Assembly (NCBI RefSeq): GCF_004010195.1
Contig: NC_057720.1
Location: 88,759,672-88,823,671 of the forward strand
Length of the DNA stretch: 64,000 bases
Direction: 5' to 3'
Source: Chiloscyllium plagiosum
Lineage: Eukaryota
Position numbers and translations under genes: made by a program. The notes beneath the pieces were generated by a model. That model was not told the DNA's origin, did no database searches, and saw only the letters and a program-made list of their open reading frames with translations. Shown piece by piece: positions 366 through 59,690 of the stretch; position 1 is the stretch's first letter; every line of letters begins with the position of its first letter.

Positions 366-566
366 CAAGATTGGAGTAGCGCTGGAAAAGTACAGCAGGT
401 CAGGCAGCATCCGAAGATCCGAATGAGCTCATTCCTGATGAAGGGCTTTTGCCTAATACATCGATTTTCCTGCTCCTCGGATGCTGCCTGACCTGCTGTG
501 TTTTTCCAGCACCACTCTAATCTTGACTCTAATCTCCAGCATCCGCAGTACCCACTTTCGCCTATT
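366..566 (+). mobile_element. PLE-derived fold-back insertion (family A) with degenerate hammerhead motif
   Basis: Left arm (gctggaaaagtacagcaggtcaggcagcatcc) is the reverse complement of the right arm. Central palindrome gaatgagctcattc at 421-434. CTGATGA at 435-441 followed by GGGC-TTTT-GCCT. One-sided tail ctccagcatccgcagtacccactttc. TSD gctgaccaag at 360-369 and 567-576. Confidence 0.8.
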
Positions 567-1061
567 GCTGACCAAGTGATGTATGGAACTGTGCTGCTTT
601 ACAATGTACTCTTTGAGCCCTACTGACAACTAATCCGCAAGTACAAATGAACTGCCTGGTGTAATGGAGTGGCATTTAGACTTCAGACCTGTGAAGGTTT
701 TCATTACAATGTCTTGTGCTACGATTCTTAATAACTTTATCCAAGTGATCACTTGGCAGACATTATATCTGATGAGCCAGTGGGAGTGAAATGACAAAGT
801 GGCCCAGAGTCAAAGCTATGTCCATCTGGTGAGAAGCCAACTTTCTAACGGCTTGATTACTGGACAACTTCCATTAAAGCTGGGATCTGTTTGCTTGAAA
901 AATGCATGCAGAGAGAAAGGGCGCTTTGAACGAATAAATCAAGCTTTAAAAAGCTTTCAAAGGTAGCTGAGACATATCCTGCAGGGCAGTGTAGGAGCAT
1001 GCAAAACAGGTAGCTCACGCTGAGAAGAATATCCATTTTGACTGCTAATTTTCTCCATCAG

Positions 1062-1202
1062 TGCAAATAGGAGGTCTCATCATCAATCAAAGCCAAGATT
1101 TCTTTGACAAGAAGCGAGCATTTTCCTTGTTATACATCCAGCGTGTTCGGAACATAACAATGCTGAGATATAAATGTGCCAGGAGGATTGTTGGGACAGA
1201 AG
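1062..1202 (+). CDS. candidate internal exon, product unknown (QIGGLIINQSQDFFDKKRAFSLLYIQRVRNITMLRYKCARRIVGTE)
   Basis: Acceptor ctaattttctccatcAG and donor AAG|gtaaaa. 141 nt, frame-preserving phase 1-1, only one frame open. No homologue recognised. Confidence 0.25.
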
Positions 1203-2169
1203 GTAAAAGTGCCGTAATTTGTAGCAAGTTAAGAAAAAGAAAGAAGCCTTGGATTTATCCAAAATGATAATGCCACTGAAAATTCTTTTATCAGAGGATG
1301 GCTACTTTTGCTGCAAAGCCTTTGTGCAGAAGATGGGTTTGGAAGGTTAAGATTTAAGTGCTACAGCTCCCTGCACTGTGATTGGGAAGTAAGTGGAATG
1401 TTTTGCAAATAGACCAAAAATGTACTTTACAGGCATGCAGAAAACAAGAGGTAATCATGATAATAGATGTTGAAAGACAGCAAGGTCGCGAGCAAAGCAA
1501 TCGGTCATATTGAACATTCTTGAAAAATAGCCAACATGTGAAGATGACGGCCAAGCGACTTTGTCAACTTTTCTATTTGAATTCAAGGTTATTAATCTAA
1601 GAACCCTCCAAGCTTTCAAAAAAAAAACAGAAAAAAAATGTTAATAAAAAGTGAAAGGATCTGTTTGTGTAGTAAATACAAAGCAGAAGAAAGCAAACAT
1701 TTGGGCTGTAATTCAAGGTCCGGATCACATTATGTGATAGACGTTGTTTACTTTTTACAGACTAAATTGCATGAGACAAATAACACAACTGCAAAAAATG
1801 TCACAAAAGTTTAAGGTTCCACTTCACTGGAAAAGACAAAGGATTGTATTTAACATTTGATTTGTGATGTTGCGATGAAGCAAAGCATGGTGCATTGCTG
1901 TCAGATATTTGGGAATTTTTAGTTATGGAAAAGCGATCATTGCTTTGTTTTTGGTCTTAGACCTTATGAGTGCCACACCATAATTGTGTTGCATGAAATC
2001 CTGAAGGAGCTGAGAAATGTTAAAAGTGGCATGTAACAGATTGATCGGCAAATTAAAATGCCAGATTGAATATATAGTTCATTTATCTTACTTTCAATTA
2101 TATTTCGGAAACAATCCAGCAAGGATATTATCCAACATATTGGCACTCTCTTTAAAACCAGGGATTCAG

Positions 2170-2432
2170 TCATAGAGTAAGGAGCAAGCCATTTAGGACA
2201 GAGATGAAAAGTAATTTCTTCACTCAAAGGATGGTAAATCATTGGAATTCATCACCCTAGAGTGTTGTAAATGCCTAGTCATTCAATCTGTTCATGACAG
2301 AGATTGATACATTTCTAGGTACTAAGATCTCCAAGAGATATGGGAATAGTGTGAGAAAATGGCATCAATGTGGTTAATCAGCAATAAACTAGAATGGCAA
2401 AGAGGCTTGAGGGGCTATTCCCATGTTCCTAT
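2170..2432 (+). mobile_element. old CR1-type LINE 3' fragment
   Basis: Degenerate match to the FRTEMRRNFFTQRVVNLWNSLP / EIDRFL C-terminal coding region and 3' UTR seen in younger copies in this window. Confidence 0.7.
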
Positions 2433-4410: not shown

Positions 4411-4539
4411 GCAGTAAATACAACAATATTTCATGAGGCATCATTACCAGGATGTGAGGGTGTTGCCTCGAGCACAGTGTTTTTACTGGATGCAGCAATA
4501 CCAATGTCATCCCTCGTAACATAATAACCTGAGTTGTGG

Positions 4540-6599: not shown

Positions 6600-6772
6600 A
6601 CTTGGAGACAGTGAGGACTGCAGATGCTGGAAAGTCAGAGTCGATAAAACGTGGAGCTGGGTAAACCACAGCAGATCAAGCAGCCTAATGAAGGGTCCTC
6701 CCTGAAACGTCAACTTTCCTGCTCCTCTGATGCTGTTTGACCTGCTTATCTTTTTCTAGCTCCACGCGTTAT
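6600..6772 (-). mobile_element. PLE-derived fold-back insertion with degenerate hammerhead motif
   Basis: Inverted tail gtgaggactgcagatgctgg on the left; inverted arms; ctaatgaagggtcctccctgaaacgtc near the centre. 14-bp TSD caacatctgaagca at 6586-6599 and 6773-6786. Confidence 0.8.
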
Positions 6773-9569: not shown

Positions 9570-9637
9570 TTTCCTGATGAAGAGCTTATGCTCAAAATGT
9601 CGATTCTCCTGCTCCTGGGATGCTGTCTGACCGGCTG
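9570..9637 (+). mobile_element. PLE terminal-repeat fragment (family A) with hammerhead motif
   Basis: CTGATGA (9574-9580), A, GAGC-TTAT-GCTC, AAAATGTC (CpG-decayed GAAACGTC), then gattctcctgctcct. Flanked by the imperfect repeat tctgcttYtaatt. Confidence 0.75.
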
Positions 9638-11346
9638 TCTGCTTCTAATTAATGTCTGGCATACTAGTCTTTCCTATTTTACACTGTTTCAGGATTTATG
9701 AACTATTTTCGGAGTTTCCCTTACATGCTGGCATAGTTTCTGGGTTGTGCACTTCCTCTATTAAGGATCCCTGGTGGAAAAATGGATGGTGGTAGCCCTG
9801 TAGGATCCACACTGGAATATGTCCATCCATCTGTTCGAACATATGAGATGTTGTTACATGTTACCAACATTGATATGATCAATAATGGTTATGGCAGACA
9901 GTGGAGTATCATTATACCTACATCTACTACTGTCAGCGCCTGTCACAGGATTTAAAGAGAAGTCATCTTGATTTTCCAGAAATCATTCTTCCAGTCTCCA
10001 TTCATCTCCAAATAAACTTGTGCTGTGTGGCATCAAATGAGAGCAGAAAAACAAGAGTAGGCTATTGAACCAAATAATCAGACCAGCCATTTATCATCTC
10101 TGATCGCTCTCACCCCAGAGTTACAACATAATAAAGCTGACAGTGTACAGGACACAGTTCAGGAATGCGCTGGGGAAAAAATAAAGCAGAGATCATAGAC
10201 TTGGCCCCTTGTCCTTTTGTATTTAGTCCTAATCCAAAGCGCACAAACTTCTAAAGGTTTCAGATAAAGAGCAGTTGCTTGTGCGAAGTTGGTGTTGTGT
10301 TCATGACACCAGTCAGCCCCCTACAACATACTTGCTAAAGGCACTACTGGTTAATGAGCAAGGCTTCTTTCCGTTCAATGATCTGGCTGAAGCTTTATCT
10401 TATTGTTGAAATGAAAAGTGAGATAATGTTACCATTTTCACAGGTCAACAGATTTTGAGGAAAGTTTGCAGGATGAAATGGTCGCCAATGTTTTATGCAG
10501 CCTGCCCACCGTGCATCTCTCACTTTAATTGATGGTAAGGACAATTATACTTATGTTCCCCACACCAGCTCTTTAAAAATTGGCTTGAATTCCCCTGTTT
10601 GGGAAAGGATCTCAGAGAATCAAAATTATATCTTCCATATTGTATCCTAGACCCTCTAATCCTCAGGGCTATAATTGAAGTGTATAGCTTCCTTGATGGT
10701 GTCTCCAGGGATGAGAACAGGTTTGTGTCGTACATGAATGTGCAGGACAGCAGCAAATAGCTTCTTTGTAGCAACCATCCCTCAGACACCCAGACCTGGC
10801 AGGGATTTCCAAAGCGTTACAGAATCCAAGTCACAATTGAACAGATGGAACAAGGCTCCCCAAGGAAATACTCCAATTTACTTACTGACCTAGCAGCAGC
10901 TGATTTGTGACCTTCAAATAGAAACAGCTAGTCTGATTTCTAACACCCTCTCCATCTGCTGCTCACAAAATACACTCTAAAATGTTTCCTCTGTGACCTT
11001 TGGATGAAACAATTAAATTGTCCCTCCACTAGGAAGCCAAAAGGCTCAGGTAGCGAAGAGGAGCTGCAGCAGATGGGAGATTCAAGTTGCTGCCAACTAC
11101 AGGCACACATCTATTCAGCAGTCAGCATACTCTTGAAAATGCTCAGCAATTCCCCTTGATAATTCTCTGCTATGCAAAGCCAACAGAGCAGAAGAAAAAT
11201 GGCAAGTGTACATAGCGCAGCAGGCCAGTCAGCAAGTAAAGAGAGCATTAGCTTTACATGATTTGGAGATGCTGGTGTTGGACTGGGGTATATAAAGATA
11301 AAAATCACACAACACCAGGTTATAGTCCAATAGGGTTACTTGGAAG

Positions 11347-11381
11347 CACTAGCTTTCGGAGCACTGCTCCTTCATCAGGTG
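11347..11381 (-). ncRNA. minimal type I hammerhead ribozyme motif, core intact
   Basis: Minus strand reads CAC-CTGATGA-A-GGAGC-AGT-GCTCC-GAAA-GC-TA-GTG: 3-bp stem I, 5-bp stem II, palindromic AGCT in place of stem III. Confidence 0.75.
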
Positions 11382-11814
11382 GTTTGGAGTACACAATTGC
11401 AAGGCTCGGAATTTATAGCAAAAGTTTACAGTGTGATGTAACTGAAATTATACATTAATAAATACCTCGATTGTTTATTAAGTCTCTCATCTGTTCGAAT
11501 GACCATGATCGTTTCACTTCTTTCCTATGTAAATCACAAAACTTTTTTTTAAAGTTACATTCTCAGGTTAACTTTAACAATTGGTGTCAGCCCAGATAAT
11601 GTGTTGAACAGATAATATGTTCAAGTTAACCTGAGAATGTAACTTTTAAAAAAAGGTTTTGTGATTTACATATGAAAGAAGTGAAACTAACATGGTCATT
11701 CTAACATATGAGAGACTTAACAAATAATCAAGGTATTTTTAATGTATAATTTCAGTTACATTACACTGTAAACTTTTACAATAAATTCTGTCATACAATT
11801 GTGTACTCCACAAC

Positions 11815-11849
11815 CACCTGATGAAGGAGCAGTGCTCTGAAAGCTAGTG
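11815..11849 (+). ncRNA. minimal type I hammerhead ribozyme motif
   Basis: CAC-CTGATGA-A-GGAGC-AGT-GCTCT-GAAA-GC-TA-GTG; G-U pair closes stem II. Confidence 0.7.
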
Positions 11850-11979
11850 CTTCCAATTAAACCTGTTGGACTATAACCTGGTCTGTGTGATTTTTAACAT
11901 TAGGTTTACATCTCAGCTCGCCACCTTCATCAGAGTTTGCATTTCAGTGGGAGAAGTCAATAGGGGCTATATGAACACT

Positions 11980-12257: not shown

Positions 12258-12378
12258 CGAAAAAAAGGAATTACTGGAGAAACTCGGTAAGTCTGGCAGC
12301 ATCTTTGGCGAGAGTTAATGTTTGGAATTTAAGACGACTCTTCTTCAGATTGCCAGCATCCACAGCACTTTACTTTAA
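12258..12378. mobile_element. degenerate PLE fold-back remnant (family C)
   Basis: ctggagaaactcggtaagtctggcagcatct...gactcttcttcag (inverted CTGAAGA core), followed by the tail ccagcatccacagcactttt. Confidence 0.55.
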
Positions 12379-15275: not shown

Positions 15276-15601
15276 TCATATAGCTCAAATCCTCTAACAT
15301 CCTTATAAATGTTGACGGGGTCATGGGTGATGAGGGAGTCGTGGATAGCATGTTTAGTGAATTGGTCACACCACAGACTGGGATTGCTGAGGAGAAAGGA
15401 AGTGGGTGACCAAAAGGCAGAGAAAGAACAGGAAGGCAGTGCAGGTGTCCCCTGTGGTCATCTCTCTCCAAAACAGGTGTCCTGTTTTGGATACTGTTGG
15501 AGGAGATGGTTCACCAGGGGAAGGCAGCAGTAGCCAGGTTCATGGCACCCGTGGCTGGCTCTGCTATACAGAAGGGCAGGAAAAAGAATGGAAGGGCTAT
15601 A

Positions 15602-16717
15602 GTCATAGGAGATTCAATTGCAAGGGGAGTAGTAAAGCTTTTCTGTGGTTGAAAACGAGACTCCCCAATAGTATGTTGCCTCCCAGGTGCACGGGTCAGG
15701 GGTGTCTTGGATCAACTGCAGAAAATTCTCAAGTGGAGGGTGAACAGCCAGTTGTCGTGGTGCATGTAGGCACCAATGATAGAGGTAAAAAATGGGATGA
15801 GGTCCTACACGAAGAATTTAGGGAGTTAGGAAACAAAGTAAAAAATAGGACTTCAGCGGTAGTAATCTCAGAATTGCTACCAGTGCCACGTGCGAGTCAG
15901 AGTAGGAATGATAGAATATTTAGGATGAATGCGTGGCTTGAGAGATGGTGCAGGAGGGAGAGGTTCAGATTTTTGGGACATTGGGATCGGTTCTGGGGGA
16001 GGTGGTACTACTGCAGATTGGATAGTCTACACCTGGGCTCGCCTAGAACCAATGTCCTTGGGGGTGCTTTGCTAACGCTATTGGGGAGGGTTTGAACTAA
16101 TGTGGCAGGGGGATGGGAACCAAATGAGGAGGTTAGTGGACAGTAAGGAGGGAGTAACTGTCATAGGAGATTCAATTGCAAGGGGAGTAGTAAAGCTTTT
16201 CTGTGGTTGAAAATGAGACTCCCCAATAGTATGTTGCCTCCCAGGTGCACGGGTCAGGGGTGTCTTGGATCAACTGCAGAAAATTCTCAAGTGGAGGGTG
16301 AACAGCCAGTTGTCGTGGTGCATGTAGGCACCAATGATAGAGGTAAAAAATGGGATGAGGTCCTACACGAAGAATTTAGGGAGTTAGGAAACAAAGTAAA
16401 AAATAGGACTTCAGCGGTAGTAATCTCAGAGTTGCTACCAGTACCACGTGCGAGTCAGAGTAGGAATGATAGAATATTTAGGATGAATGCGTGGCTTGAG
16501 AGATGGTGCAGGAGGGAGAGGTTCAGATTTTTGGGACATTGGGATCGGTTCTGGGGGAGGTGGTACTACTGCAGATTGGATAGTCTACACCTGGGCTCAA
16601 CTAGAACCAATGTCCTTGGGGGTGCTTTGCTAATGCTATTGGGAAGGGTTTGAACTAATGTGGCAGGGGGATGGGAACCAAATGAGGAGGTTAGTGGACA
16701 GTAAGGAGGGAGTAACT
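15602..16717 (+). repeat. 558-bp tandem duplication inside LINE ORF1
   Basis: 15602-16159 is repeated at 16160-16717 with about 7 substitutions; ORFs 15406..16095 and 16207..16653 are near-identical. Confidence 0.95.
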
Positions 16718-17392: not shown

Positions 17393-17772
17393 TTAATTTT
17401 CCCAACATTGACTGGATTCACTAGTGTTAGAGGTCTAGATGGAGCAGGAATTGTCAGGAGCATCCAGGAGGGTTTTATAGAGCAGTATGTAAATAGTCCA
17501 ACTCATGAAGGGGCCATATTGGACCTGATGTTGGGAAATGAGCCCAGCCAGGTAGCTAAAGTTTCAGTCGGGGAATTACTTTGGGAATAGTGATCACAAT
17601 TCCATAAGTTTTAGGATACTCATGGACAAAGACGAGAGTGGTCCTAAAGAAAGAGTGCTAGACAGGGGGAAGGCCAGCTATACCAAATTTCGGCAGGAGC
17701 TGGGGAATGTAGATTGGGAGAAGCTGTTTGAAGTGAAATCCGTATCCGATATATGAGATGCTTTTAAAGAGT

Positions 17773-18000
17773 TGAAAATGTGTTGCTGGGAAAGCGCAGC
17801 AGGTCAGGCAGCATCCAAGGAGCAGGAGAATTGGCAGGAGAATTGACGTTTCAGGCATGAGCCCTTCTTCATTCCTGAAGAAGGGCTCGTGCCTGAAACG
17901 TTGATTCTCCTGCTCCTGGGATGCTGCCTGACCTGCTGTGCTTTTCCAGCAACACATTTTCAGCTCTGATCTCCAGCATCTGCAGTCCTCACTTTCTCCT
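17773..18000 (+). mobile_element. PLE-derived fold-back insertion (family A) nested in the CR1 LINE; two hammerhead motifs back to back
   Basis: Perfect 17-bp TSD agatgcttttaaagagt at 17756-17772 and 18001-18017. Inverted arms. CTGAAGA (17875-17881), A, GGGC-TCGT-GCCT, GAAACGTT. Tail on the right only. Confidence 0.9.
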
Positions 18001-20050: not shown

Positions 20051-20596
20051 CTCCATGTGTTCCTCACCGCCTGGTATCAACACTGCATCTCTTATGTCCG
20101 GTCTTTACAGTTTAATCCTGCCCACCATTATGATGCACACTCCTCTCCCACACTCCCTCGTGGGCATAATCATGGTGACAGCTCCCACTGCATCGACTGC
20201 CCTCGCATTAACATCTATTCTCTTCCTAACATTGAATTTCACTCCTTCACTGTCCTTGCTCCTTTGTGTCCCTACATGCTGGCTCCAATGTCCCCAACAT
20301 TGAATTGCCCCATGTCCCTATGACACCAGTGTCTTGCAGTAACCACAACCCCACTACTACCACCACCACCTTGACTTTCAATCTGCTTCTTGCCAGCTCC
20401 CACCACTCGGAACTGGTCATCAGGTGCAACCCTTTTCCTAACTGCCCTAAACACTCGACTGACCATGCCCGCATCTCCAGACTGATCGCAGGCATTGCCC
20501 TTGACTAAACATACTGGGACTCCCCGAATGACGGCAGCACCCCACCTTGACTTGGCTGAGGACTACCCCCATTTTGAATCTGAGAATTGTCATTCT

Positions 20597-20779
20597 GAGC
20601 TGAAAAATGTGTCGCTGGAAAAGCGCAGCAGGTCAGGCAGTATCCAAGGAGCAGGAGAATGGCTTATGCCCGAAACGTCGATTCTCCTGCTCCTTGGATG
20701 CTGCCTGACCTGCTGTGCTTTTCCAGGGACACATTTTTCAGCTCTGATCTCCAGCATCTGCAGTTCTCACTTTCTCCTA
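20597..20779 (+). mobile_element. PLE-derived fold-back insertion (family A) with the hammerhead 5' half deleted
   Basis: Inverted arms; centre ggcttatgcccgaaacgtcga; right-hand tail; imperfect TSD tgtcaKtctga. Confidence 0.85.
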
Positions 20780-23009: not shown

Positions 23010-23252
23010 TGTGAGGACTGCAGATGCTGGAGATCAGAGTCAAGATTAGAATGGTGCTGGAAAAGCACAGCAGGTCAGGCAGCATCCAAGGAGCAGGAAA
23101 ATTGATGTTTTGGACAAATACTCTTCATCAGGAAAGATGAAGCCACCTGACCTGCTGTGCTTTTCCAGCACCACTCTTCCGAAACATTGATTTTCCTGCT
23201 CCTCGGAAGCCACCTGACCTGCTGTGCTTTTCCAGCACCACTCTAATCTTGA
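23010..23252 (-). mobile_element. PLE fold-back insertion (family A variant) with a scrambled centre
   Basis: Inverted tail on the left, inverted CTGATGA core (cttcatcagg), duplicated gaagccacctgacctgctgtgcttttccagcaccactct segment. Confidence 0.8.
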
Positions 23253-23527
23253 CTGCATCTAACACTCCGCTTCTTCCTTGCCCCACCGAACTCATCTCCG
23301 CATACCTTGACACCGTCCTGTCCCCCTTAGTCCAAGAACTCCCCACCTACGTTCGGGACACCACCCATGCCCTCCACCTGCTCCAGGATTTTCGCTTCCC
23401 CGGTCCCCAATGCCTTATTTTCACCATGGACATCCAGTCCCTGTACACCTCCATCCCCCATCACGAAGGACTCAAAGCCCTCCGCTTCTTCCTTTCCCGC
23501 CGTACCGACCAGTAACCTTCCACAGAT

Positions 23528-23781
23528 ACCCTCCTTCGACTGACTGAACTGGTCCTCACCCTGAACAACTTCTCTTTCCAATCCTCCCACTTCCTCCAAA
23601 CGAAAGGAGTAGCCACGGGCACCCGCATGGGCCCCAGCTATGCCTGCCTCTTCGTAACCCTCCTTCGACTGACTGAACTGGTCCTCACCCTGAACAACTT
23701 CTCCTTCCAATCCTCCCACTTCCTCCAAACGAAAGGAGTAGCCATGGGCACCCGCATGGGCCCCAGCCATGCCTGCCTCTT
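23528..23781 (+). repeat. 129-bp in-frame tandem duplication in the PLE RT, next to the gap
   Basis: Unit starting at 23528 recurs at 23657 with few differences. Confidence 0.85.
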
Positions 23782-24244
23782 NNNNNNNNNNNNNNNNNNN
23801 NNNNNNNNNNNNNNNNNNNNNNNNNNNNNNNNNNNNNNNNNNNNNNNNNNNNNNNNNNNNNNNNNNNNNNNNNNNNNNNNNNNNNNNNNNNNNNNNNNNN
23901 NNNNNNNNNNNNNNNNNNNNNNNNNNNNNNNNNNNNNNNNNNNNNNNNNNNNNNNNNNNNNNNNNNNNNNNNNNNNNNNNNNNNNNNNNNNNNNNNNNNN
24001 NNNNNNNNNNNNNNNNNNNNNNNNNNNNNNNNNNNNNNNNNNNNNNNNNNNNNNNNNNNNNNNNNNNNNNNNNNNNNNNNNNNNNNNNNNNNNNNNNNNN
24101 NNNNNNNNNNNNNNNNNNNNNNNNNNNNNNNNNNNNNNNNNNNNNNNNNNNNNNNNNNNNNNNNNNNNNNNNNNNNNNNNNNNNNNNNNNNNNNNNNNNN
24201 NNNNNNNNNNNNNNNNNNNNNNNNNNNNNNNNNNNNNNNNNNNN
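23782..24244. other. assembly gap (463 N)
   Basis: Run of N. Confidence 1.
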
Positions 24245-24641
24245 AAGTTTGTCCAGCAGGGTAAGATAAAAGGTAGGGAGGAGGGACTTGGGGGAGGGGC
24301 GTCGGAAATGTGATCGGTGGAAAGAGGTCAAGGTGAGGGTGATAGGCCAGACTGGGGTGGGGGCAGAGAGGTGGGGAAGAAGATTGCAGGTTAGGAAGGC
24401 GGTGCTGAGTTCGATGGATTTGACTGAGACAAGGTATTTCCCCTCCCCCCACCTTGTCTCAGTCAAATCCATCGAATTCAGCACCGCCTTCCTAACCTGC
24501 AATCTTCTTCCCGACCTCTCCGCCCCCACTCCCGTCTGACCTATCACCCTCACCTTGACCTCTTTCCACCTATCACATTTCCGACGCCCCTCCCCCAAGT
24601 CCCTCCTCCCTACCTTTTATCTTAGCCTGCTGGACAAACTT
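24245..24641. repeat. long inverted repeat, 191-bp arms and 15-nt loop
   Basis: 24245-24435 is the reverse complement of 24451-24641 with few mismatches; the left arm runs into the gap. Confidence 0.95.
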
Positions 24642-25777
24642 TCCTCATTCCTGAAGAAGGGCTTATGCCCAAAACGTCAATTCTCCTGTTCCCTGGATGC
24701 TGCCTGACCTGCTGCGCTTTTCCAGCAACACATTTTCAGCTCTGCATCTAACACTTTCAAAGGCAGCTCCTTCCATATGCGCACCATCCTCTATGTGTAA
24801 AAGTTGCCCTGCACGTCCTTTTTAAATCTTTCCCCTCTCACCTTATACCTATACCCTCTTGTTTTGAACTCCCCTATCCAAGGGAAAAGACCTTAGGCAG
24901 AGTGAATCTACGAACTTTAGATTTGCCTCAAGAGGGTGAATTGTCTGAGAAAGAGCAAGCAGAAACCAAACAGAAGAAATTGTGAGGGTGGAAGAACATA
25001 CAAGAGAAATGAATGAGCCTCATGTTGAGACAGAAGCAAGTTGGGTGGGAGACATCATAATAGTTCTGAGACATGCCATATTGCTAAACAGCATCTCCCA
25101 ATATTTCTAGTATTACCCTGTGATGAACCCTGATTTATCCCATTCTACAGCTGAGAATATCAGAAGTAGATCATTCAGCCCTTCCAGCTTGTTGTGCCCT
25201 TTAAGTAGATTAAGCTTGATCTGAAATGCAAATTCATTTACCTGCCTTTGCTCCATCTCCCTTGCTAATCTTATTTTTTTTTAAAATCTCTCATTCAAAA
25301 GCTCTAATTGCTCATTGGAGAGAATTCCACACTGTTTCCCTCCTGTATACTAAAAAAGTATACTTCCTGATTTTACATCTGAAAGTCCTTGCTGTACTTT
25401 TTAAGTTTGTTACCAATCTCACTGTAAGTTACATCAGACAACAATAGTGGTTTGCTGGTAAGCCTGACTACTAATTGCATCAACAACATGAAACAATCAA
25501 GATGTTCCTCTACTATTCAAACATTCTGTATCACCTCTTTTTCTGACTCACTCCTTCCCAACATCTCAAAGTTGCATAATTCCTCACCTTATTCAACATT
25601 CACTTAATATTCAAGGTCTTAAAATGCAAATTCAGTCTCATTTTACCAGCATTTGTTAAGAAACTCATTTTCATGTTTAATCTTTTCAATCTTGCACTGT
25701 GAATCATGGCTGTAGAGGTTTGGTAACTTAAAGAGAAAAGTGATTTTAAGTGCAACCTTTTATATATACATATATAC

Positions 25778-32199: not shown

Positions 32200-32355
32200 C
32201 TCCTGTGTCTTACGATCTTATTCTCTACAACCAACTGATGAAAGAGCAGTGCTCCAAAAGCTAGTGCTTCCAAATAAACCTGTTGGACTATAACCTGGTG
32301 TTGTGTGATTTGTAACTTCATCCATTCCAGTCCAACACGGACACCTCCAAATCAT
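32200..32355 (+). mobile_element. PLE terminal repeat with tail (family B), degenerate hammerhead
   Basis: CTGATGA (32235-32241), aagagcagtgctccaaaagctagtg, then aataaacctgttggactataacctgg and the tail ccagtccaacacggacacctccaaatcat. Confidence 0.85.
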
Positions 32356-33704: not shown

Positions 33705-33780
33705 TCAGAATGTTAACCCTGATTTCTTTCTGTTGATGCTGCCAGACCTGCTGAGTTTTGCCAGCAATTTCCGTTTTTCC
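33705..33780 (+). mobile_element. PLE terminal-repeat remnant (family C)
   Basis: gatgctgccagacctgctgagttttgccagcaattt. Confidence 0.6.
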
Positions 33781-34211: not shown

Positions 34212-34350
34212 CCATTCTAATGAAGAGTCACCAGGCTCAAGATTTTGGATCTACTTTCTATCCACGGGTGCAGCCAGACCTGCTGAGCTTCTCCAGCAAT
34301 GTCTGTCTTTTTGCTGAAGACCTCCAGTACCCACAGTTCTTTGTTTTATT
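34212..34350 (+). mobile_element. PLE terminal-repeat remnant (family C) with decayed hammerhead
   Basis: ctaatgaagagtcaccaggctc...gccagacctgctgagcttctccagc, then the tail ctccagtacccacagttctttg. Confidence 0.6.
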
Positions 34351-38032: not shown

Positions 38033-38167
38033 TTCTAAAAGGTCTTCCCTTTTCTCTAACTGTGCCCTCAGGTCCTAGTGTCTCCTACCAATGGAAACAT
38101 CTTCCCAACATCTACTCTGTCCAGACCATTCAGTATTCTGCAAGTTTCAATTAGATCCTCCCTCATC
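38033..38167 (+). repeat. 135-bp exact direct copy of 37303-37437
   Basis: Base-for-base identical, offset 730 bp. Confidence 0.95.
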
Positions 38168-41625: not shown

Positions 41626-42552
41626 TGTAACATAATTCATAGTCCTGTTGAGTGGAATGCCAAGCTATCTTGCTGGTCTTGGCCAGCATTAATGGCACAA
41701 GTTTGCATTTCAGGATCAGAAAGACCTGTTTCTGGTGGGTGGAGGTGGGAGGGGGTTGGGAGAGAGGCCAGTTTTGGGAGAGTTTGGAATGGTATGTGAG
41801 TAAGGATAGCAAGATACCAGGGGGATGAGAGGTCAGCATGGCATGTGAGTAAGCATGAGTGTGGGGTACGGTGCCAATTAAGTGAGAGGTTAGGAGTGTA
41901 GGTTGGCAGGCTGGTTGAGAGTAGTAGAATACCAGATGGTTGAGTGCCTCATTGCCAGTTGGGTGAATGGTACAGGTGCCCAGTTGTAGAAGGATAGGAT
42001 GTCAGGCAAGTGGATAAGTGTTAAGGAACTGCATCCATGAAGGAGCTGTTAGGTTGGGTGGGGAGAGACAGTATCATGTCAGGATTGGTGGGTGAGTGAG
42101 TGGTGGGGAGGTGGGGGTGTGGAATGGCGGGATTAGTAGGAGGTCATTGGGCGTGGAGGGTATGAGGTTGGTGAGTGAGTGGTTTTGGGTTAGAGAGAGT
42201 GCTGTTGATGGGGAGTGGGACGGGGGTGCATGAGGATTGAATTGATTTTTAAAGCAGGTTTTAGTCCTCCAACATATCCCGGGCACCAATCTTTAGTCAT
42301 TGAGAACCCTCCAAAATGTCTGACGCTAACTCAGAATAAGAGGCATGTTTGGGAGGATTACAAATATTCAATTTCCGGCGCAATTCCTGATGGATCAATT
42401 GCATCAGATATTCCGCAGGGTCCAGACACCTAACTCGAGTTTACCATGCTGAAACAACTACCTCTCTGGGCCATTCATTCAAAGAACATCACAGATTTTC
42501 TGGTTGGTCAATCCTTTGTTGGTTATTGGATCTTGCCATACCTACATGATCA

Positions 42553-42628
42553 ATGGCTTATGCCCAAAGTGTCGATTCTCCTGCTCCTCGGATGTTGCCT
42601 GATCTGCAGTGCTTTTCCAGTGCCACAT
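42553..42628 (+). mobile_element. PLE terminal-repeat fragment (family A) inside a decayed Deu-domain-like SINE (about 42440-42725)
   Basis: ggcttatgcccaaagtgtcgattctcctgctcctcggatgttgcctga. Flanks aacatcacagattttctgg and gactacatttcaaaagtgctt resemble the Deu-SINE domain; that part is weak. Confidence 0.65.
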
Positions 42629-43649: not shown

Positions 43650-43757
43650 AATTATCTCTCCACCTATAAATTCTGAGCCTGTGCGCTTCCTTACCTGACA
43701 AAGGAGCAGTGCTCCGAAAGCTTGCGATTTTAAATAAACCCATTGGACTATAACCTG
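43650..43757 (+). mobile_element. PLE terminal-repeat fragment (family B-related) with hammerhead motif
   Basis: ctgacaa-a-ggagc-agt-gctcc-gaaa-gc-tt, then aataaacccattggactataacctg. Confidence 0.75.
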
Positions 43758-48813: not shown

Positions 48814-49147
48814 TCATAGAAGCCCTACAGTGTGGAACCAGGCCATTCAGTCCATCAAGTCCACACTGACCCTCTGAAGAGCATCCCAACCCTGTCCCCT
48901 ACCCTTTCCCTACATTTCTTATGGCTAATCCACCAAGCCTGCACAACCCTGGACACAATGGGTGAGTTAATATAGTGAAGCCACCTAACCCGCACATCTG
49001 GATTGTGGGAGTAAACCAGAGCACCCAGAGGGAATTCACACAGTCACGGGGAGAATATGCAAACTCCACACGGGCCAGTAACCCAAGGGTAGAATCAAAC
49101 CTGGGTGTCTGGCACTGTGAGGCAGCAGTGCTAACCACAGAGCCAAC
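48814..49147 (-). mobile_element. HE1-type SINE
   Basis: ccctacagtgtggaa tail through gtgaggcagcagtgctaaccac head. Confidence 0.9.
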
Positions 49148-49762
49148 CTTGTATCAGGTATGACTATCATTAAGGAATTTAGATTTTTAAAGTAGAGGCT
49201 TTTGGGTTTTGGCTTAAGTTCTGTGAAGGTATTTTTTTTTCACTTGAGTTCAAGATGTCATTCAGAAAACTGCCATAAAAGCATCATCCCCAAGAAAGCA
49301 TGTGACTTATTAATTGTGCAGCCAGATATCTGTGGGGTTCAATGATGGAGTGTTTGCACTGCAGAGTTTCTGGCGTGCAGAGAAACAAATGATCAGAGGC
49401 CACTAGTGGTTTAGTCAGAGTTCAGTGTAGAAGAATGAGGTTTCAGTTTTCACCCTAACAGGAGGATGAGGTCTGCAGGGCAGGAGAACAGCTTCACCCT
49501 CGCAGAAAGGCAGTTTCATTTGTGAAATGTCCAAGTTGTGCAGATCTGTATGGAGGTTTTCAAGCTGTCAGTCAGAGCTGAAAAGAACTTTAGGTTGTTG
49601 GAATTGGAAAGTAGTCAGGGAGTCATAGAGTCAGAGTCATACAGCACAGAAGCAGACCCTTCAGTCCAACTTGCCCATGCCGACAAGTTTCCCAAACTAA
49701 ACTAGCCCCACTTGTTTGCTTTTGGCCATATCGTTTTAAACCTTTCCTGTTTATGTACCTGT

Positions 49763-49902
49763 TGAAACTTTATTGCTGGAACAGCACAGCAGGTCAGGCA
49801 GCATCCAGGGAACAGGAGATTCGACGTTTCGGGCACAGGCCCTTCTTCAGCAATAAAGTTTCAACTTTGATCTCCAGCATCTGCAGACCTCACTTTCTCC
49901 TA
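49763..49902 (+). mobile_element. PLE fold-back insertion (family A); hammerhead core intact on the minus strand at 49819-49850
   Basis: TSD tttatgtacctgt at 49750-49762 and 49903-49915. Minus strand reads CTGAAGA-A-GGGC-CTGT-GCCC-GAAA-CG-TC-GAAT. Confidence 0.9.
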
Positions 49903-50639
49903 TTTATGTACCTGTCCAACTGTCTTTTAAATGTTGTAACTGTACCTGCACCTACCACGTCCTCTGGCATCTCATTCCACACACGAATCATTCTCTGTGT
50001 GAAAAAGTTGCCCTTCAGGTCCCTTCTAAATCATTCTCCTTTCACCTTAAAAATATGCCCCCAGTTTTGATCTCCCCCACCCTAGGGAAAAGACCTTTGC
50101 TGTTCAGTTTAGCCATGCCCCTCATGATTTTATACACCTCCACATGGTCACCCCTCAACCTTCTGCACTCAAGTGAAAGAAGTCCCAGACTGCCCTTCAG
50201 TCCTGTCAAATCCTGGTAAATCTTTTCTGAATCCATCCAATTTAATAATATCCTTCCAATAACAGGGCCACATGAACTGCACACAGTACACTAAGAGTGG
50301 CCTCACCAACATTCTGCACAACTATAATATGACATCCCAACTCCAATTCTGAGCAACAAAGGGAAGTGTGCTAAATGCATTCTTCATCTCCCTGTTTACC
50401 TGTGCAGCAACTTTAAAAGAACAATGCACCTGCTCCTCCAGGACTCTCTGTTTAACAATTCAACCCAGGGCCCTACCATTAACTGCATTAGTCCTACCCT
50501 TGTTTGTCTTACCAAAATGCAAAATCTCACATTTATCCAAATTAAACTCTTTCTGCCACTCTTCATCAGCCCCATTGAACAAGATCCCTTCGAAATCTTA
50601 GGTAATCTTCTTCACTGTCAACTATACCATCAATTTTAA

Positions 50640-50955
50640 GGGTGGCACAGTGGTTCAGTGGTTAGCACTGCTGCCTCATGGTGCCAAGGACCCGGGTTCA
50701 ATTCCAGCTTTGGGCAACTGTCTGTGTGGGGTTTGCATGTTCTCCCTGTCCCTGTATGGGTTTCCTCTGGTGCTCCGGTTTCCTCCTGCAATCCAAAGAT
50801 GTGCAGGTCAGGTGAATTGGCCATGTAAAATTGCCTAAAGTATTCAGGGATGTGTAGGTTAGGTGCATTAGTCAGGGGTAATGTAAAGTAATAGCGCAAG
50901 AGAATAGTTCTGGGTGGGTTACTCTTCAGAGGGTTGGTGTGGACATGTTGGTCCT
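50640..50955 (+). mobile_element. HE1-type SINE
   Basis: Head gggtggcacagtggttcagtggttagc; B-box gggttcaattcc. Confidence 0.9.
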
Positions 50956-51642: not shown

Positions 51643-54600
51643 TTGAATTCATTTATCGCTGGACATTGGCGTGCATCCAGAAAAATTAACAAACAGTGAA
51701 ATTCACAACTAATCTTGGAGGAACCGGTTTGGGAGAGGTCACAGCACCGAAACAGATAAATGGATTTGTGTGTGGTCTTAAAATAAGTCTGCAGTACTGA
51801 GTACAGTGGGTTCTTTATTGATTATATGTTTTATTGAGCTATGTCTCTTGATTAAACTTAAAATATAAGGCATAAATATTAATTTAACTGGGAGCAGGGT
51901 TTTGTCAAGGAATGACACAGTGCTATTTTCTGGGTCTTTAGATTGAGAGAAGCAAAAATGGCCCTGAGTAGAGTGATATGCTCTTCTTGCCAGATGTGGG
52001 AGTTTAGGGAGTGATTACAGGTTACTGAGAATTATATCTGCAATAAATGCCATTGGTTGCAATTCGTATCAGATCGAATGGATCAGTTGGAGAGGCAGTT
52101 AGAGGTAATGAGGAATTTACAAGAGCAAGGGGATGTGATGGATGGCAGTTATAGGAAGGGGAGGATGTCTCAGATACAGTCACATAGATGGGTTAACTCC
52201 AGGAAAGGTAAGAGAGGTAGGCAGGTAGTGCAGGAGTCATCTGTGGCCATCCCCATTTCAAACAAGTATGCTGTTTTGGAAAATGTAGGAGGTGATGGAT
52301 TCTCAGGGGAATGTAGCACGAACAGTCAAGTTTCTGGTATTGAGATTGGCTCGAATGTAATGAGAGGTATGCATGAGGGTTCCAAGCAATCAATTGTGTT
52401 AGGGGACTCTCTAGTCCAAGGTATAGACAGACATTTCTGTGACCAGCAGGGAAAAATCAGAATGGTGTGTTGCTTCCCCGGTGCCAGGATCAAGGAAGTC
52501 TCAGAAAGGGTGCAGAATGTTCTCAAGGGAGAGCGGAGTCAGCAAGAGGTCATTGTACACATTGGAACCAATGATATAGGAAGGGAAAAGGTTAAGATTC
52601 TGATGGGAGATTTTAGAGAGTTAGGCAGGAATTTGAAAAGGAGGTCCTCGAGAGCAGTAATATCTGGATTACTCCCAGTGCTACAAGCTAGTGAGGGCAG
52701 GGAAAGGAGGATAGAGCAGATGAATGCATGGCTGAGGATGTGGTGTATGGGAGAAGGATTCATATTTTTGGATCATTGGAAGCTGTTTTGGGGTAAAAGC
52801 GACCTGTACAAGAAGGAAGGATTGCACTTAAATTGGGAGGGGACTAATGAACTGGCAGGGAGATTTGCGAGAGCTGCTCGGGAGGATTTAAACTAGTGAG
52901 ATGGGGGTGTGGGACCCAGGAAGATAGTGAGGAAAGATTTCAACCTGAGACCGGTACAGTTGAGAACAAAGGCGAGTTAAACAGGGCAGGCAGGGACAAA
53001 GCAGGGAACAAGGTATGACTGAAATTAAACTGCATTTATTTCAATGCAAGAGGCCTAACAGGGAAGACAGATTAACTCAGGGCATGGAATGGGATATCAT
53101 AGCAATTACAGAAACATGGCTCAGGGATGGACAGGACTGGCAGTTTAATGTTCCAGGATATAAATGCTACAGGAAGGATAAAAAGGGAGACAAAAGAGGA
53201 GGGGGATGGCGTTTTTGATAAGGGATAGCAGTAAAGCTGGGCTGAGGGAGGATATTCTCAGAAATACATCCAAGAAAGTTATTTGGATTGAACTGAGAAA
53301 TAAGAAAAGGATGATCACTTTATAGGGATTGTATTATAGACCCCCTAATAGTCAAAAGGAAAATGAGAAACAAATTTGTAAGGAGATCTCAGCTATCTGT
53401 AAGAATAATAGGGTGGTTATGGTAAGGGATTTTGACTTTCTAAACATAGACTGGGACTGGCATAGTGTGAACAGTTTATATGGAGAGGAATTTGTTAAGT
53501 GTGTACAAGACAATTTTCTGATTCAGTATGTGAATGTACCTACAAGAGAAGGTGCAAACCTTGACCTACTCTTAGGAAATAAGGCAGGGCAGGTGACTGG
53601 GGGGTCAGTGGGGGAGCAACTTTGGGGCCAGCGACCATAATTCTATTAGATTTAAAATAGTGATGGAAAAGGAAAGGTCAGATCTAAAAGTTGAAGTTCT
53701 AACTTGGAGGAAGGCCAGTTTTAACGGCATTAAGCATGAACTTTTAAAACCTGATTGGGGGCAGATGTTCACAGGTAAAGGGACGGCTGGAAAATGGGAA
53801 ACCTTCAGAATTGAGATAACATGAGATAGCTTTGGCAAATAGAGTTAAGGAGAATCCAAAGGGTTTTTACAAATACACTAAGGACAAAAGGGTAACTAGG
53901 GAGAAAATAGGGCCCCTCAAAGATCTGGAAGGCGGCCTATGTGTGGAGCTGCAGGAGATGGGGAGATACTAAATGAGTATTTTGCATCAGTATATAGCAT
54001 TGGAAGCTATAGAATGTAGGGAAATAGGTGGTGGTATCTTGAAAAATGTCTATAGTACAGAGGAGGAAGTGCTGGATATCTTGAAATACATAAAAGTGGA
54101 TAAATCCCCAGGACCTGATCAGGTGTACCCTAGAACTCTGTGGGAAGCTAGGGAAATGATTGCTGGGCTTCTTACAGAGATATTTGTATCATTGATAATC
54201 ACAAGTGAGCTGCCGGAAGACTGGGGGTTGATTAACATGATGCCACTCTTTAAGAAGGGTAGTAAGGACAAGCCAGGGAACTGTAGACCAGTGAGCCTGA
54301 TGTCGGTGGTGGGCAAGTTGTTGGAGGGAATCCTGAGAGACTGGATGTACATGTATTTGGAAAGGCAAGGACTGATTCGGGGTAATCAGCATGGCTTTGT
54401 ACGTGGGAAATCATGTTGCACAAACTTGATTGAGGTTTTTGAAGAAGTAACAAAGAGGATTGATAGGGCAGAACGGTAGATGTGATCTATATGGACGTCA
54501 GTAAGATATTCGACAAAGTTTCTCATTGGTGACTGGTTAGCAAGGTTAGATCTCATGGAATACAGGGAGAACTAGCCATTTGGCTACAGAAGACAGAGGG

Positions 54601-55648
54601 TGGTGGTGGAGGGTTGTTTTTCAGACTGGAGGCCTGTGACCAGTGGAGTACCACAAGGATCGGTGCTGGGTCCACTATTTTTCATCATTTATATAAATGA
54701 TTTGGATGTGAGCATAAGAGGTACAGTTAGTAAGTTTGCAGATGACACCAAAATTGGAGGTGTAGTGGACGGCAAAGAAGGTTACCTCAGATTACAACGG
54801 GATCTTGGTCAGATGGGCCAATGGGCTGAGAAGTGGCAAATGGAGTTTAACTCAGATACATGCAAGGTGCTGCATTTTGGGAAAGCAAATCTTAGCAGGA
54901 TTTATACACTTAATAGTAAGGTCCTCAGGAGTGTTGCTGAACAAAGAGACCTTGGAGTGCAGGTTCATAGCTCTTTGAAAGTGGAGTCGCAGATAGATAG
55001 GAAACTGAAGAAGCATTTGTTATGCTTTTCTTTATTGGTCAGAGTATTGAGTACAGGAGATGGGAGGTCATGTTGCGGCCACTGTTAGGTTAGGCCACTG
55101 TTGGAATATTGCGTGAAATTCTTGTCTCCTTTCTATCGGAAAGATGTTGTGAAACTTGAAAGGGTTCAGAAAAGATTTACAAGGATATTGCCAGGGTTGG
55201 AGGATTTGAACTATAGGGGAGGTTGAATAGACTGGGGCTGTTTTCCCTGGAGTGGCGGATGCTGAAGGGTGACCTTGTAGAGATTTATAAAATCATGAGG
55301 GGCATGGATAGGCCAAATAGGCAAAGTCTTTTCCCTGGAGTCGGGGAGTCCAGAAGTAGAGGTCATAGGTTTAGGACGAGAGGGGAAAGATATAAAAGAG
55401 ACCTAAGGGGCAACTTTTTCACACAGAGGGTGGTGTGTGTATGGAATGAGCTGCCAGAGGAAGTAGTGGAGGCTGGTACAACTACAACATTTAAAAGGCA
55501 TCTGGATGGGTATATGAATAGGAAGGGTTTGGAGGGATATGAGCCGGGTGCTGGCAGGTGGGGCTAGATTGGTTTGGGTTATCTGGTTGGCATGGACAAT
55601 TTGGACCAAAGGGTCTGTTTCCGTGCTGTACATCTCCATGACTCTATA
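51643..55648 (+). mobile_element. near-full-length inactive HER1/CR1 LINE
   Basis: 5' UTR, ORF1, ORF2 endonuclease and RT in fragments (IIAITETW, YYRPP, GVPQGSVLGP, SKFADDTK, NFFTQRVV), deletion near 53820, 3' tail catgactctat. The 5' boundary is approximate. Confidence 0.95.
51958..52896 (+). pseudogene. LINE ORF1: CxxC...CxxC zinc finger, coiled coil, SGNH esterase; one early stop
   Basis: MALSRVICSSCQMWEFRE*LQVTENYICNKC, then LGDSLVQG, HIGTND, EGLHLN. Confidence 0.9.
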
Positions 55649-57020: not shown

Positions 57021-57324
57021 GTTTGGCTCAGTGGTGAGCACTGCTGCCTCACAGCGCCAGGGACCTGGATTAGATTCCAACCTCGGGCGACTGAATGTAT
57101 GAAGTTTGCACATTTTTCTCGTGTCTGTGTGGACTTCCCCCAGGTGCTCCAATTTCGTCCCACAGTCCAGAGACATACGGGTTAGGTGGATTAGCCATGG
57201 TAAATGTGAGGTGAAGGGGGATAGGGTAGGGGACTAGGTGTGGGTGGGATGCTCTTCAGAGGGTCGATGTCAACTGGATTGGCCAAATGGTTTCTTTCCC
57301 CATTATAGAGATTCTGTGATTCTA
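57021..57324 (+). mobile_element. HE1-type SINE (diverged)
   Basis: Head tggctcagtggtgagcactgctgcctcacagcgccagggacc; (gattct)-type tail. Confidence 0.9.
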
Positions 57325-57606
57325 TGAATTTGCATCACTGGAGAATTTCCAGGTATTGAAAGAATAAGAAGGGAATGCGATTGGTGAGCAACTTAATTTT
57401 TTAGAAACTATTTGGAAATTTCCCTGTTGTGCTTTTACCTGTTTGCTTGATGGACAACGAAACCACTCGTGAGTTATTTGTCGTGTCCAACTACTTCTAC
57501 CCACTTTGAAAGTTGTTTAAAATTAATTTCAATGCCTGTGGTGGACATCTATTGGTTAAAAAGTAATAACCAACGGGAAGTAAACAAAGCCCAGACAGTT
57601 CACAGT

Positions 57607-57908
57607 GATTAGATTAGATTACAGTGTGGAAACAGGTCCTTCAGCCCAACAAGTCCACACCGACCCGCCGAAGCGAAACCCACCCATACCCCTACATTTA
57701 CCCCTTACCTAACACTACGGGCAATTTAGCATGGCCAATTCACCTAACCTGCACATCTTTGGACTGTGGGAGGAAACCGGAGCACCCGGAGGAAACCCAC
57801 GCAGACACGGGGAGAACGTGCAAACTCCACACAGTCAGTCGCCTGAGGCAGGAATTGAACCCGGGTCTCTGGCGCTGTGAGGCAGTAGTGCTAACTACTG
57901 TGCCACCG
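57607..57908 (-). mobile_element. young HE1-type SINE
   Basis: CpG-rich; nearly identical to 62841-63157. Confidence 0.95.
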
Positions 57909-58199
57909 TTGATATTAAACAACGTTATGGAAATGTGAGTTGTGAGTATCATAGGTTGCAAACCCAAGAGTAGATACGGTCAGTAAATTTCACTTAAACG
58001 TACAAATTTTAGTTTCCAATCCTTCTTGGCCTGGCATGGACTTCAAGTCTCGATGCGATTCCTTGAAGTGTGGTCCCACTGTGGCTGAGCGCTTAAGAAA
58101 GACGGTAATGTTTGAACTTTCAGCTTTATTTCTTTATTTTCCACTTAAAACTAAGAAGGCTGAAATGTGCAAATTTTAACCTTATTTTGTATATTTTAC

Positions 58200-58382
58200 A
58201 TTATACTTTTATTACTGCAATGTTTAACTTTTAACTTTGTTCTTTCTTTCCAACTTGTTAAGATTCTGCACCGAGGTACTTTGTATCTAAGATGGTGTCT
58301 TGTATGGTGACATGATACACTTTTCACTGTAAACTCCTGTACTTTTGCACCTGAGTACCTTTGACAATAGAAATCAAATCCA
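58200..58382 (+). mobile_element. probable LINE 3' UTR remnant
   Basis: acacttttcactgt...tgagtacctttgacaatagaaatcaaatc ends like the Rex1-type tail; family uncertain. Confidence 0.4.
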
Positions 58383-59517
58383 GTACAAAAGATTTTTTTC
58401 CTAATGACTGCAATGTGCATTGTTTTCTTTTTCCAGTGAAAATTAACCATTTTGGTAAGATTAATACAGTTGAGTTATTACTGCTCTTAATGCCTAGTAT
58501 GGTTGAATGATGTTCCTGTTAGCAATTTTGGTGGAGGGCAATTCCTCACTCTTATCAAAAAGATTAATCGCCTTGTTAAAAAACAGTCACAGCAAAATCT
58601 TGTCTGCCAACAGTAATTTCTAGCTTTGTGTCAGAAGAAGTTGGAAATGTACAGTACATGGATCAGCATCAAAAAGTAAAAGACAGAGTATTGTTTAGGC
58701 ATGATTCTTCACCCGAACTCAGTTCTACAGGTTTATTAATACCTATTCCCTTTTATTCTTTAAGAAGTTAGTTTAAAAACAACTATATAAAATAGAGAAA
58801 TTGGATTGATTGCTGTCAGGTGTTGCAAAAGCTTCTAATGAACAAATAAATCTGATAAATTAGTGAACACTGTAACTTGCAGTGAAGTTTGTACGACTGT
58901 AACAGTTTTCTTATTGCAAGTATCTGCAACCCTCTTCTAGAATAGATTAACCATGACTGGAAGACGAGAATTACAATCAATTCCAAAAAAAAAATCAGAA
59001 AATATAGCACATTATAATCGAAAATCCAAAGGCTGCTGAGGATGTCCCTAGGGCTCTAACTCGTGACCTCAGCACTCAATCGCTGTAATAAAAGAGGTAA
59101 AATATTAGAATATCTGCAGATTGAGTTACAAAAAGTTCTGTCCCACTGCACATGCAGACCAACTCCTCACTTTCATCTGTCATATGGCTTATGTAAAGCA
59201 GGTTTATTCTGTCACATTTATTGGGGCAGTTATGTCTTTACAGGTTAGCATGTATGCAGCAAGTATAGTCCAGACTAGACCAATGTACAAAAACAAACCA
59301 TTTGCCCTGTGTACATTGAGAGTGCACATTCTCAAATAACAAATATTGCAAATACATGAAATATTAAAGAAAAACGGAAAGCGCAGCAAATATTCAGCTG
59401 CTGAGAAAATTTTATGCATAGCTTTTTGTCTGTTGAAGGATGGCACCTGATATATTAAGCTGAAAATTCTTCCTACTGATGGGGGAAGTAAAGGCTACAG
59501 CAAGAAATTTGGTTAGA

Positions 59518-59690
59518 GACAAAAAAACACTGCCAATGCTGGAATCCAAAGTAGATAGGTAGGAGGCTAGAAGAACACAGCAAGCCAGGCAGCATCAGGA
59601 GGTGCAGAAGGGTTACACCCGAAACATTGACTTCTCCATCTCCTGATGCTGCCTGGCTTGCTGTGTTCTTCCTGTCTTCTGCCTGTCTCT
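59518..59690 (-). mobile_element. PLE-derived fold-back insertion (family D) with partial hammerhead
   Basis: Arms gaagaacacagcaagccaggcagcatcaggag and ctcctgatgctgcctggcttgctgtgttcttc; centre cagaaGGGTtacACCCgaaac; left tail actgccaatgctggaatc. Confidence 0.8.

Follow-up and report, generated by a model that had tools for sequence, protein, structure and literature searches.

Hammerhead ribozymes of Penelope-like elements in a shark genome: what copy ends and U6 fusions suggest about transcription start and cleavage

Introduction

What has produced the many small hammerhead ribozymes dispersed through a shark genome, and do they cut? The question is raised by a stretch of 64,000 nucleotides from Chiloscyllium plagiosum (NC_057720.1, positions 88,759,672 to 88,823,671), referred to below as the window, in which a preliminary description had noticed hammerhead motifs within short Penelope-like element (PLE) sequences. 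The role of the PLE hammerhead is unsettled, as it barely cuts in vitro, is dispensable for insertion in vitro and has left no cut ends in lizard RNA-seq. The explanation favoured here, to which a probability of roughly 0.6 is given, is that the ribozymes belong to the pseudo-long terminal repeats (pLTRs) of PLEs, that the short copies, or stubs, are mostly complementary DNAs (cDNAs) of the uncleaved leader of the element's mRNA, and that a minority of the RNAs is cut in vivo.

The minimal hammerhead and its abundance

The window contains 25 pLTR arms, 18 of family A, four of family B and three of family C, as catalogued by blastn with nine reference copies at E<=1e-4. About 15 copies from at least four families had been reported; the dispersed copies are real and several families are present, but the count was too low, and the copies with GGGC, GAGC and GGGT stems have a common tail, which makes them subfamilies of A. 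Thirteen recognisable minimal hammerhead cores were found by a fuzzy scan and inspection, and every core base is kept in four of these, at 11378 (-), 11818 (+), 17875 (+) and 49850 (-) by a strict scan. The single topology said to be present wherever the core survives, CTGANGA followed by an extra A, stem II, GAAA, CG or GC, T and H, can be read at the places cited, but four of the seven examples are broken: the core is kept only at 49850, 11378 and 11818, and the copies cited at 24651 and 9574 read AAAA, which is G12A, the same mutation that had been proposed as the knock-out control. As an observation, the preliminary description is therefore borne out in kind and partly confirmed, and its interpretation is partly supported.

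The motif has the core of a minimal hammerhead, with CUGANGA, GAAA and UH in order, an extra base after A9 and a G10.1-C11.1 pair. The stem II variants GGGC/GCCC, GAGC/GCTC, GGAGC/GCTCC and GGGT/ACCC are as originally written, as is the replacement of stem III by a palindrome, 15.1-16.1 being ACGT or AGCT; at 15.2-16.2 the palindrome is CG in families A, C, D and F and GC in B and E. The link between the ribozyme and PLEs was published in 2014 by Cervera and de la Pena (PMC4209133), whose minimal hammerheads, found in fish Xena, Poseidon and Neptune elements, share the lack of helix III, an extra base between 9 and 10.1, the G10.1-C11.1 pair, the palindromic 15.2-16.2, a short helix I, many covarying families and a spread mostly as solo copies. 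Since an extra A and a palindrome thus belong to the general features of the class, the comparison with a viroid hammerhead that had been offered is not needed.

Across six families, stem II reads GGGC/GCCC, GGAGC/GCTCC, GGGTC/GACCC or GAGTC/GACTC, and stem I reads ATTC/GAAT, CAC/GTG, AGTT/AACT, AGCT/AGCT or GCA/TGC. The pairs were counted by script because a MAFFT alignment set family B out of register, with family E represented by three copies and family F by one. Watson-Crick pairs occupy 43 of the 48 helix I and II cells, against an average of 19 when the 3' strands are swapped between families, and of the 720 permutations only the true pairing reaches 43. This covariation of the helices across families shows selection on the master elements. 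In an Rfam search of the window, no hammerhead family was matched at E<=10.

That minimal type I PLE hammerheads are very numerous in this genome of 3.56 Gb was correctly anticipated. The pattern CTGANGAAG-N7..11-CGAAASSTH has 142,864 matches genome-wide and 15 in the reversed control, a longer-stem core pattern has 1,964 (control 32) and one 31-mer pattern has 45,146 (control 0); in the exact-core patterns pairing is not enforced and head-to-head insertions are counted twice. A generic pattern with an overlong gap missed the main families and served to find families C to F, and the scan was redone with a shorter-gap pattern. Among all fetched loci, 354 of 366 strict cores could be assigned to nine groups. 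A sample of 80 evenly spaced 10-kb stretches, with 770,874 non-N bases, yielded 247 arms, or 320 per Mb, making up 2.9% of the sequence, and the density is 393 per Mb in the window and 296 per Mb in the 200 kb flanking it. The window is an average, typical sample of the genome, and extrapolation gives a genome-wide total of about 1.1 million arms. For scale, the roughly 145,000 exact cores compare with about 4,000 in coelacanth and 9,000 in Xenopus obtained with another descriptor (PMC4209133); two supplements of that paper make no mention of sharks.

The parent element

One copy (23267-24741) had been linked to PLE reverse transcriptase (RT) sequence, and the link holds: the RT piece is 95% identical (74/78 aa) to an open reading frame (ORF) that combines RT and a GIY-YIG endonuclease (EN) in the long copy L046. 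A first look through the genome with this piece gave 138,550 candidates, of which 150 were scored. The L046 frame is open over 893 aa, with RVT_1 at E 6e-8 (above cutoff), a C-terminal GIY-YIG at E 3.5e-4 (21.2 bits, just under the cutoff of 22.6) and visible DKG and CCHH-like motifs. The RT-EN linker CxxxxCxxC reads PCNRRRCNTC in L046 and PCQSNLCKMC in L049.

In L046 and other long copies the GIY-YIG ORF is followed after about 160 nt by a family A core, and a family B core lies behind a decayed, related linker-EN frame (E 5e-7 to L046); families A and B are those for which the pLTR position was traced to an ORF. At the other end, the tail of a further copy, L372, runs on into a frame that opens with ATG (MPALKK...) 136 nt past the predicted cut site at +28, where position 0 is C3 of the core and the predicted scissile bond of family A lies between +27 (C17) and +28. 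The order of the element is therefore core, leader, ATG, ORF, 3' untranslated region (UTR), core. The stubs are pieces of the pLTR of RT and GIY-YIG PLEs and not separate non-autonomous families. The parent elements appear to be Neptune-like, an assignment made by the linker, which is also found in Nematis. As in the EN-bearing Neptune and Nematis PLEs (Craig et al. 2021, PMC8557442), which share the RT, a CX2-5CxxC linker, a C-terminal GIY-YIG, the pLTR, an inverted 5'-truncated copy and an optional 30-40-bp tail, a single ORF with RT and C-terminal GIY-YIG is accompanied here by a pLTR, an inverted 5' copy and an optional tail.

The family A1 core was also seen to open, with CTG ATG AAG, a frame of about 17 codons that ends in the GCCTGA of the tail and is absent from the CTGAAGA subfamilies; it is a possible upstream ORF.

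Ends of the copies

Copy ends, for which the available text of the 2014 study contains no comparable mapping (PMC4209133), were read in two sets. The first comprises 251 family A copies, being all fetched loci minus pattern-selected centres, copies below 88% identity and copies near N, and the second comprises 141 copies from unselected DNA (window, flanks and the 80 samples). Because copies were chosen by a motif in the tail, downstream of the core, the core itself had no influence on the choice. In the unselected set 53 of the 5' ends fall at -6..0, and in the larger set 77 fall at -5..-2 (26 of them at -4) and 50 beyond -12. A peak at the cut site itself was considered and rejected, as +28..30 holds only 5 of 141 and 7 of 251 ends. 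The 3' ends of the larger set include 102 at +125..127 and form a second cluster at +88..95, and an inverted arm lies directly upstream in 127 of its 251 copies.

A precedent for much of this exists in PAc, a Poseidon element of Anolis that likewise carries its hammerhead in the pLTR (Frangieh et al. 2024, PMC11167929). Two internal RT starts define its tail, both DNA strands are nicked and extended, and the main template is uncleaved RNA. Two internal starts with extension of both strands would yield two 3' ends and, by inference, head-to-head pairs. The two elements differ in that PAc belongs to the Poseidon clade and has its ATG inside the hammerhead (PMC11167929), whereas the element here has a zinc-finger linker and a long frame starting well past the cut.

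In long copies the 5' peak coincides with TCATTC, TTATTC, TCAGTT or TCAGCT, which are initiator-like. Family B has TATAAA at -37 and a 5' peak at -9..-6 (14/84). A pile-up 2-5 nt ahead of the core at an initiator-like site indicates that most stubs are likely cDNAs of an uncleaved, capped mRNA leader, and the 5' peak is probably the transcription start. An RNA polymerase II promoter and start within the pLTR are known from Drosophila virilis Penelope (Schostak et al. 2008, PMC2377424) and, with TATA and initiator, from Adineta (PMC3846280), the available texts drawing no relation to a hammerhead or to copy ends. As a separate observation, long family A copies (L008, L012, L047 and L060) have a common TTATCT at about -36..-29, where family B has TATAAA. 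It is a possible TATA substitute. We take the motif to be GATA-site-like.

The base at the junction offers a further clue. In subfamily A2 the base preceding ATTCC is, genome-wide, G in 3,444 cases, A in 1,634 and T in 646, templated C being uncounted, so that at -4 G exceeds T by 5:1. No such excess is seen at -3, where a hand count of the first 100 listed of 6,146 junctions gave C 54, T 33 and G 13; for A1 the first 100 listed of 2,736, again counted by hand, gave about C 51, G 29 and A 20. An extra G is a mark of capped full-length L1 copies of the long interspersed nuclear element (LINE) class (PMC11702581), and there is an even chance that the extra G at -4 derives from the cap. On a target-site preference behind the G excess, the unselected set supplies only 13 target-site duplications (TSDs).

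The most serious rival to the start-site reading is that these are ordinary 5'-truncated PLE copies, the ends of which cluster through RT stalling or template switching at the hammerhead, or through AT microhomology, and not at a transcript start. PLEs in general are prone to strong 5' truncation (PMC8557442), ATT is preferred by the anole EN (PMC11167929), and at six of the seven G loci explained by a TSD a further A or AT is shared with the start of the element. The 5' strand of stem I in family A, moreover, ends at -4, the position of the peak, but in family B stem I has 3 bp (-3..-1) and the peak nevertheless stands at the TATA distance. Truncation also sits poorly with the shape of the distribution, since 5'-end counts in the 251 copies drop steeply upstream of -5 and slowly downstream, and with a G excess that is present at -4 and missing at -3. 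It is considered unlikely, while still the best of the rivals.

U6 fusions at the predicted cleavage site

If most stubs come from uncleaved RNA, evidence of cutting has to come from elsewhere. A junction-fixed pattern found one fusion of U6 to the element, identified as U6 by Rfam. When the junction was left free from +15 to +45, a range outside which lie any fusions upstream of +15, there were seven matches at six loci and none in the control, and all seven join five T to +28. The six loci differ in their flanks and tail subfamilies. Since only 3 of 34 junctions of ordinary copies within the same range fall at +28, the chance of six of six is about 0.09^6. The junctions show no microhomology because the element base before +28 is C.

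Hammerhead cleavage leaves a 5'-OH end. RtcB ligates the cyclic phosphate of U6 to 5'-OH ends, and the U6/LINE-1 chimeras that it generates (Moldovan et al. 2019, PMC6789731) share with the present fusions a U6 3' end and T run joined, without microhomology, to the 5' end of a retroelement RNA that is then retrotransposed. The junctions in L1 vary and require an as yet undefined nuclease (PMC6789731), whereas here a single bond, that of the ribozyme, is used at all six loci. Template switching, if it took place at a cleaved 5' end, would require the cut too. On the indirect evidence of these genomic junctions, the U6 fusions at the scissile bond are likely to be a record of in vivo cleavage, in family A only. 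The same U6 junction occurs on both arms of L374 and of L377/L378, which fits a ligated template and also fold-back copying.

One of these copies deserves separate mention. In L372 (G000:C1:38726739-38729782, -) a U6 3' piece joined at +28 is followed by the tail, by some 430 nt from the 5' region of the element and then by another piece of pLTR, which likewise begins near +28. A cleaved template that was circular or had been re-primed might account for this layout.

Proposed mechanism

In the explanation favoured here, reverse transcription would start at internal sites at about +90 and +126, and the cDNA would extend as far as the 5' end, probably capped, of an mRNA that had not been cleaved, some 4 nt before the core, to give a stub. 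Nicks on both strands would prime extension and so generate head-to-head pairs. A minority of the RNAs would be cleaved in vivo, probably as a dimer or with the help of the element's protein; dimer cleavage was reportedly described by Lunse et al. in 2016. Cleavage would remove a capped leader of 32 nt, and the 5'-OH end so exposed could be joined to U6 by RtcB; the inserted stubs would then decay neutrally.

Several observations weigh against this explanation. Starts and cut ends are inferred from genomic copies, and none has been seen directly in RNA. In a single-cell polyA run, of which about 2% was read, 88 reads do break off at -4 of an A3 copy, in agreement with the copy ends, but no spot where many molecules start or end was found, in a library hardly able to show one. 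The 5' peak is broad, extending over -12..+11. The cap-derived G is confounded: among 30 G loci, eight are explained by the inverted arm and seven by a TSD, leaving 15 unexplained, and the non-inverted -4 junctions of the unselected set (n=13) are G4, A4, T3 and C2. The Rfam score for U6 is reached at only three of the six fusion loci, the others having the 3' piece only. Minimum-energy RNAfold structures of monomers and dimers lack the hammerhead form, although this is expected for a motif without helix III. Finally, RNA-seq of PAc gave no reads ending at the cut site (PMC11167929), in contrast to the marking of the cut bond by U6 fusions here.

Non-autonomous spread and host transcripts

The preliminary description had regarded the short copies as non-autonomous derivatives, and self-propagating families of a retrozyme- or SINE-like kind (SINE, short interspersed nuclear element), with their own RNA, would indeed suit copies that are so very numerous and that have a modal length of about 130 nt (-4..+126). 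Like the copies here, the non-LTR retrozymes of animals (bioRxiv 10.64898/2026.07.22.740005), one of which comes from a cartilaginous fish, derive from pLTRs and carry type I hammerheads. They are, however, direct tandem repeats of fixed units, whereas the copies here are solo or head-to-head, with the exception of one direct tandem pair, and have variable ends. Each of the stub subfamilies has its match in the pLTR of a long copy with an ORF, no fixed internal deletion was seen, and the modal stubs lack the element at the TATA position upstream. The copies thus behave as 5'-bounded pLTR pieces of autonomous RT and EN elements, and independent propagation is very improbable. The exceptional pair (L085/L086, G000:C1:27372538-27372689) has two family C cores arranged as a direct tandem at a distance of 122 nt, and an A3-type piece of tail lies in between.

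Once inserted, the cores decay. Of the 105 family A copies in the sampled DNA that span the core, 70 retain all 11 core bases together with H17, and G12, part of a CpG, differs in 13 of 73 family A copies. Mismatches in family A number 23/730 at non-CpG core positions against 185/2460 in the tail, but the gap mostly vanishes once A/T and G/C positions are compared separately; the core positions then change about like the tail, and accordingly no claim of purifying selection or of purging is made. An A3 copy attracted 996 reads in the polyA run, on both strands and with 93% continuing into other sequence, which indicates that stubs ride in host transcripts and nothing more. No convincing host exon was identified in the window among 66 candidate exons listed and 16 frames scanned with Pfam.

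The idea that intact intronic copies cleave host pre-mRNA might draw on the many complete cores and on the polyA reads, but it is unsupported and most improbable, given the missing exon, the mutation of core bases at about the rate of like tail bases, the inverted arm beside about half of the copies, the predicted folding of the 17765-18005 palindrome into an RNA hairpin of -178.5 kcal/mol that covers its own core at 17875, and the lack of cleavage in vitro by solo minimal hammerheads (PMC4209133).

Insertions in the window

The family A insertions are spread along the window. A stub at 381..549 (+) with a short inverted arm (381-417, -) has a broken core at 435 (GAAA to AATA), a head-to-head pair at 6603..6746 (+) has a broken core at 6685 (G5A), and a stub of the GAGC/GCTC subfamily at 9571..9637 (+) carries the G12A core at 9574. 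The palindromic insertion at 17768..18000 is centred on the 5' edge of the core, which is complete at 17875 (+) and lacks C3 at 17872 (-); the former is predicted to be locked within the fold-back hairpin. In a second palindromic insertion, at 20594..20778, the junction falls within the core. At 23016..23242 an A1 inverted arm, with a G12A core at 23131 (-), is accompanied by two direct tail pieces. A decayed stub lies at 42547..42626 (+), and a young A3 stub at 49760..49901 (-), which spans -4 to +90, is 99% identical to L047, has the complete core 49850 and bears a short inverted tail arm at 49839-49901. An old palindromic A-like insertion occupies 59536..59672, its core at 59602 broken (GTGCAGA, with C3 and A6 lost).

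The PLE with the RT piece, at 23267..24749 (+), is 5'-truncated and rearranged, with a CTGCATCTAACACT repeat on both flanks. It consists of the RT fragment (23270-23779), an N gap (23782-24244), 3'UTR and then the pLTR, the core of which carries G12A at 24651. Its 3'UTR was also seen to contain a 191-nt inverted repeat (96%) at 24245-24641 that is matched by plant microRNA (miRNA) models in Rfam. A miRNA gene was rejected here, the repeat being an inversion inside the insertion, and the miRNA-model matches at 24346, 59564 and 17837 were rejected as fold-back hairpins of the element.

Family B is represented by a single head-to-head insertion with upstream 3'UTR at 11258..11901, the arms of which are 87% alike over 619 nt; its - arm has TATAAA about 37 nt ahead of the core, and both cores are complete, 11378 (-) and 11818 (+), the latter with G-U at 10.1-11.1. 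Family B stubs also occur at 32227..32355 (+), spanning -8 to +122 with G12A, and at 43693..43757 (+), where core 43695 is broken (G8A). The family C sequences are old, comprising a tail fragment at 12260..12308 (-), a fragment at 33709..33778 (+) and a stub starting at -3 at 34214..34317 (+).

Other repeats were noted. LINE fragments at 15391-16653, 52015-52896, 18511-18969 and 53973-55088 contain pieces of a GDSL-esterase ORF1 (Lipase_GDSL_2) and of RVT_1 and are presumably CR1/L2-like; 15602-15901 is duplicated at 16160-16459 (99%). An abundant SINE family of about ten copies (21301-21641, 25779-26032, 33151-33416, 48826-49151, 50636-50881, 57024-57911 and 62858-63156), which we take to resemble elasmobranch SINEs, is also present, as is a 141-nt direct repeat (99%) at 37303-37443 and 38033-38173, 730 nt apart.

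Significance

The motif, the extra A, the palindrome, the pLTR location and the solo spread were already known, and the families may already be catalogued in Dfam or Repbase; here this known kind of element occurs at an unusual scale and offers two testable mechanistic clues. A literature search outside subscription journals found nothing on shark PLE hammerheads, U6-Penelope fusions or strong-stop-like PLE copies. With some 145,000 exact cores and about a million arms, the genome offers statistical power, and the two clues make definite predictions, the copy ends placing the start site within a few bases and the U6 fusions placing the cut at one bond. Hairpins make up about half of the family A copies and could supply double-stranded RNA in large amounts.

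More tentatively, and with the odds somewhat against it, the PLE hammerhead at the mRNA 5' end may act as a self-decapping switch, in which uncleaved RNA would lead to around a million strong-stop-like stubs and to insertions, and cleaved RNA would become an RtcB substrate that gives rise to U6 fusions and possibly to circles. If this is true, the genome would preserve a record of where the transcript starts and also of activity in vivo for a ribozyme class of debated role.

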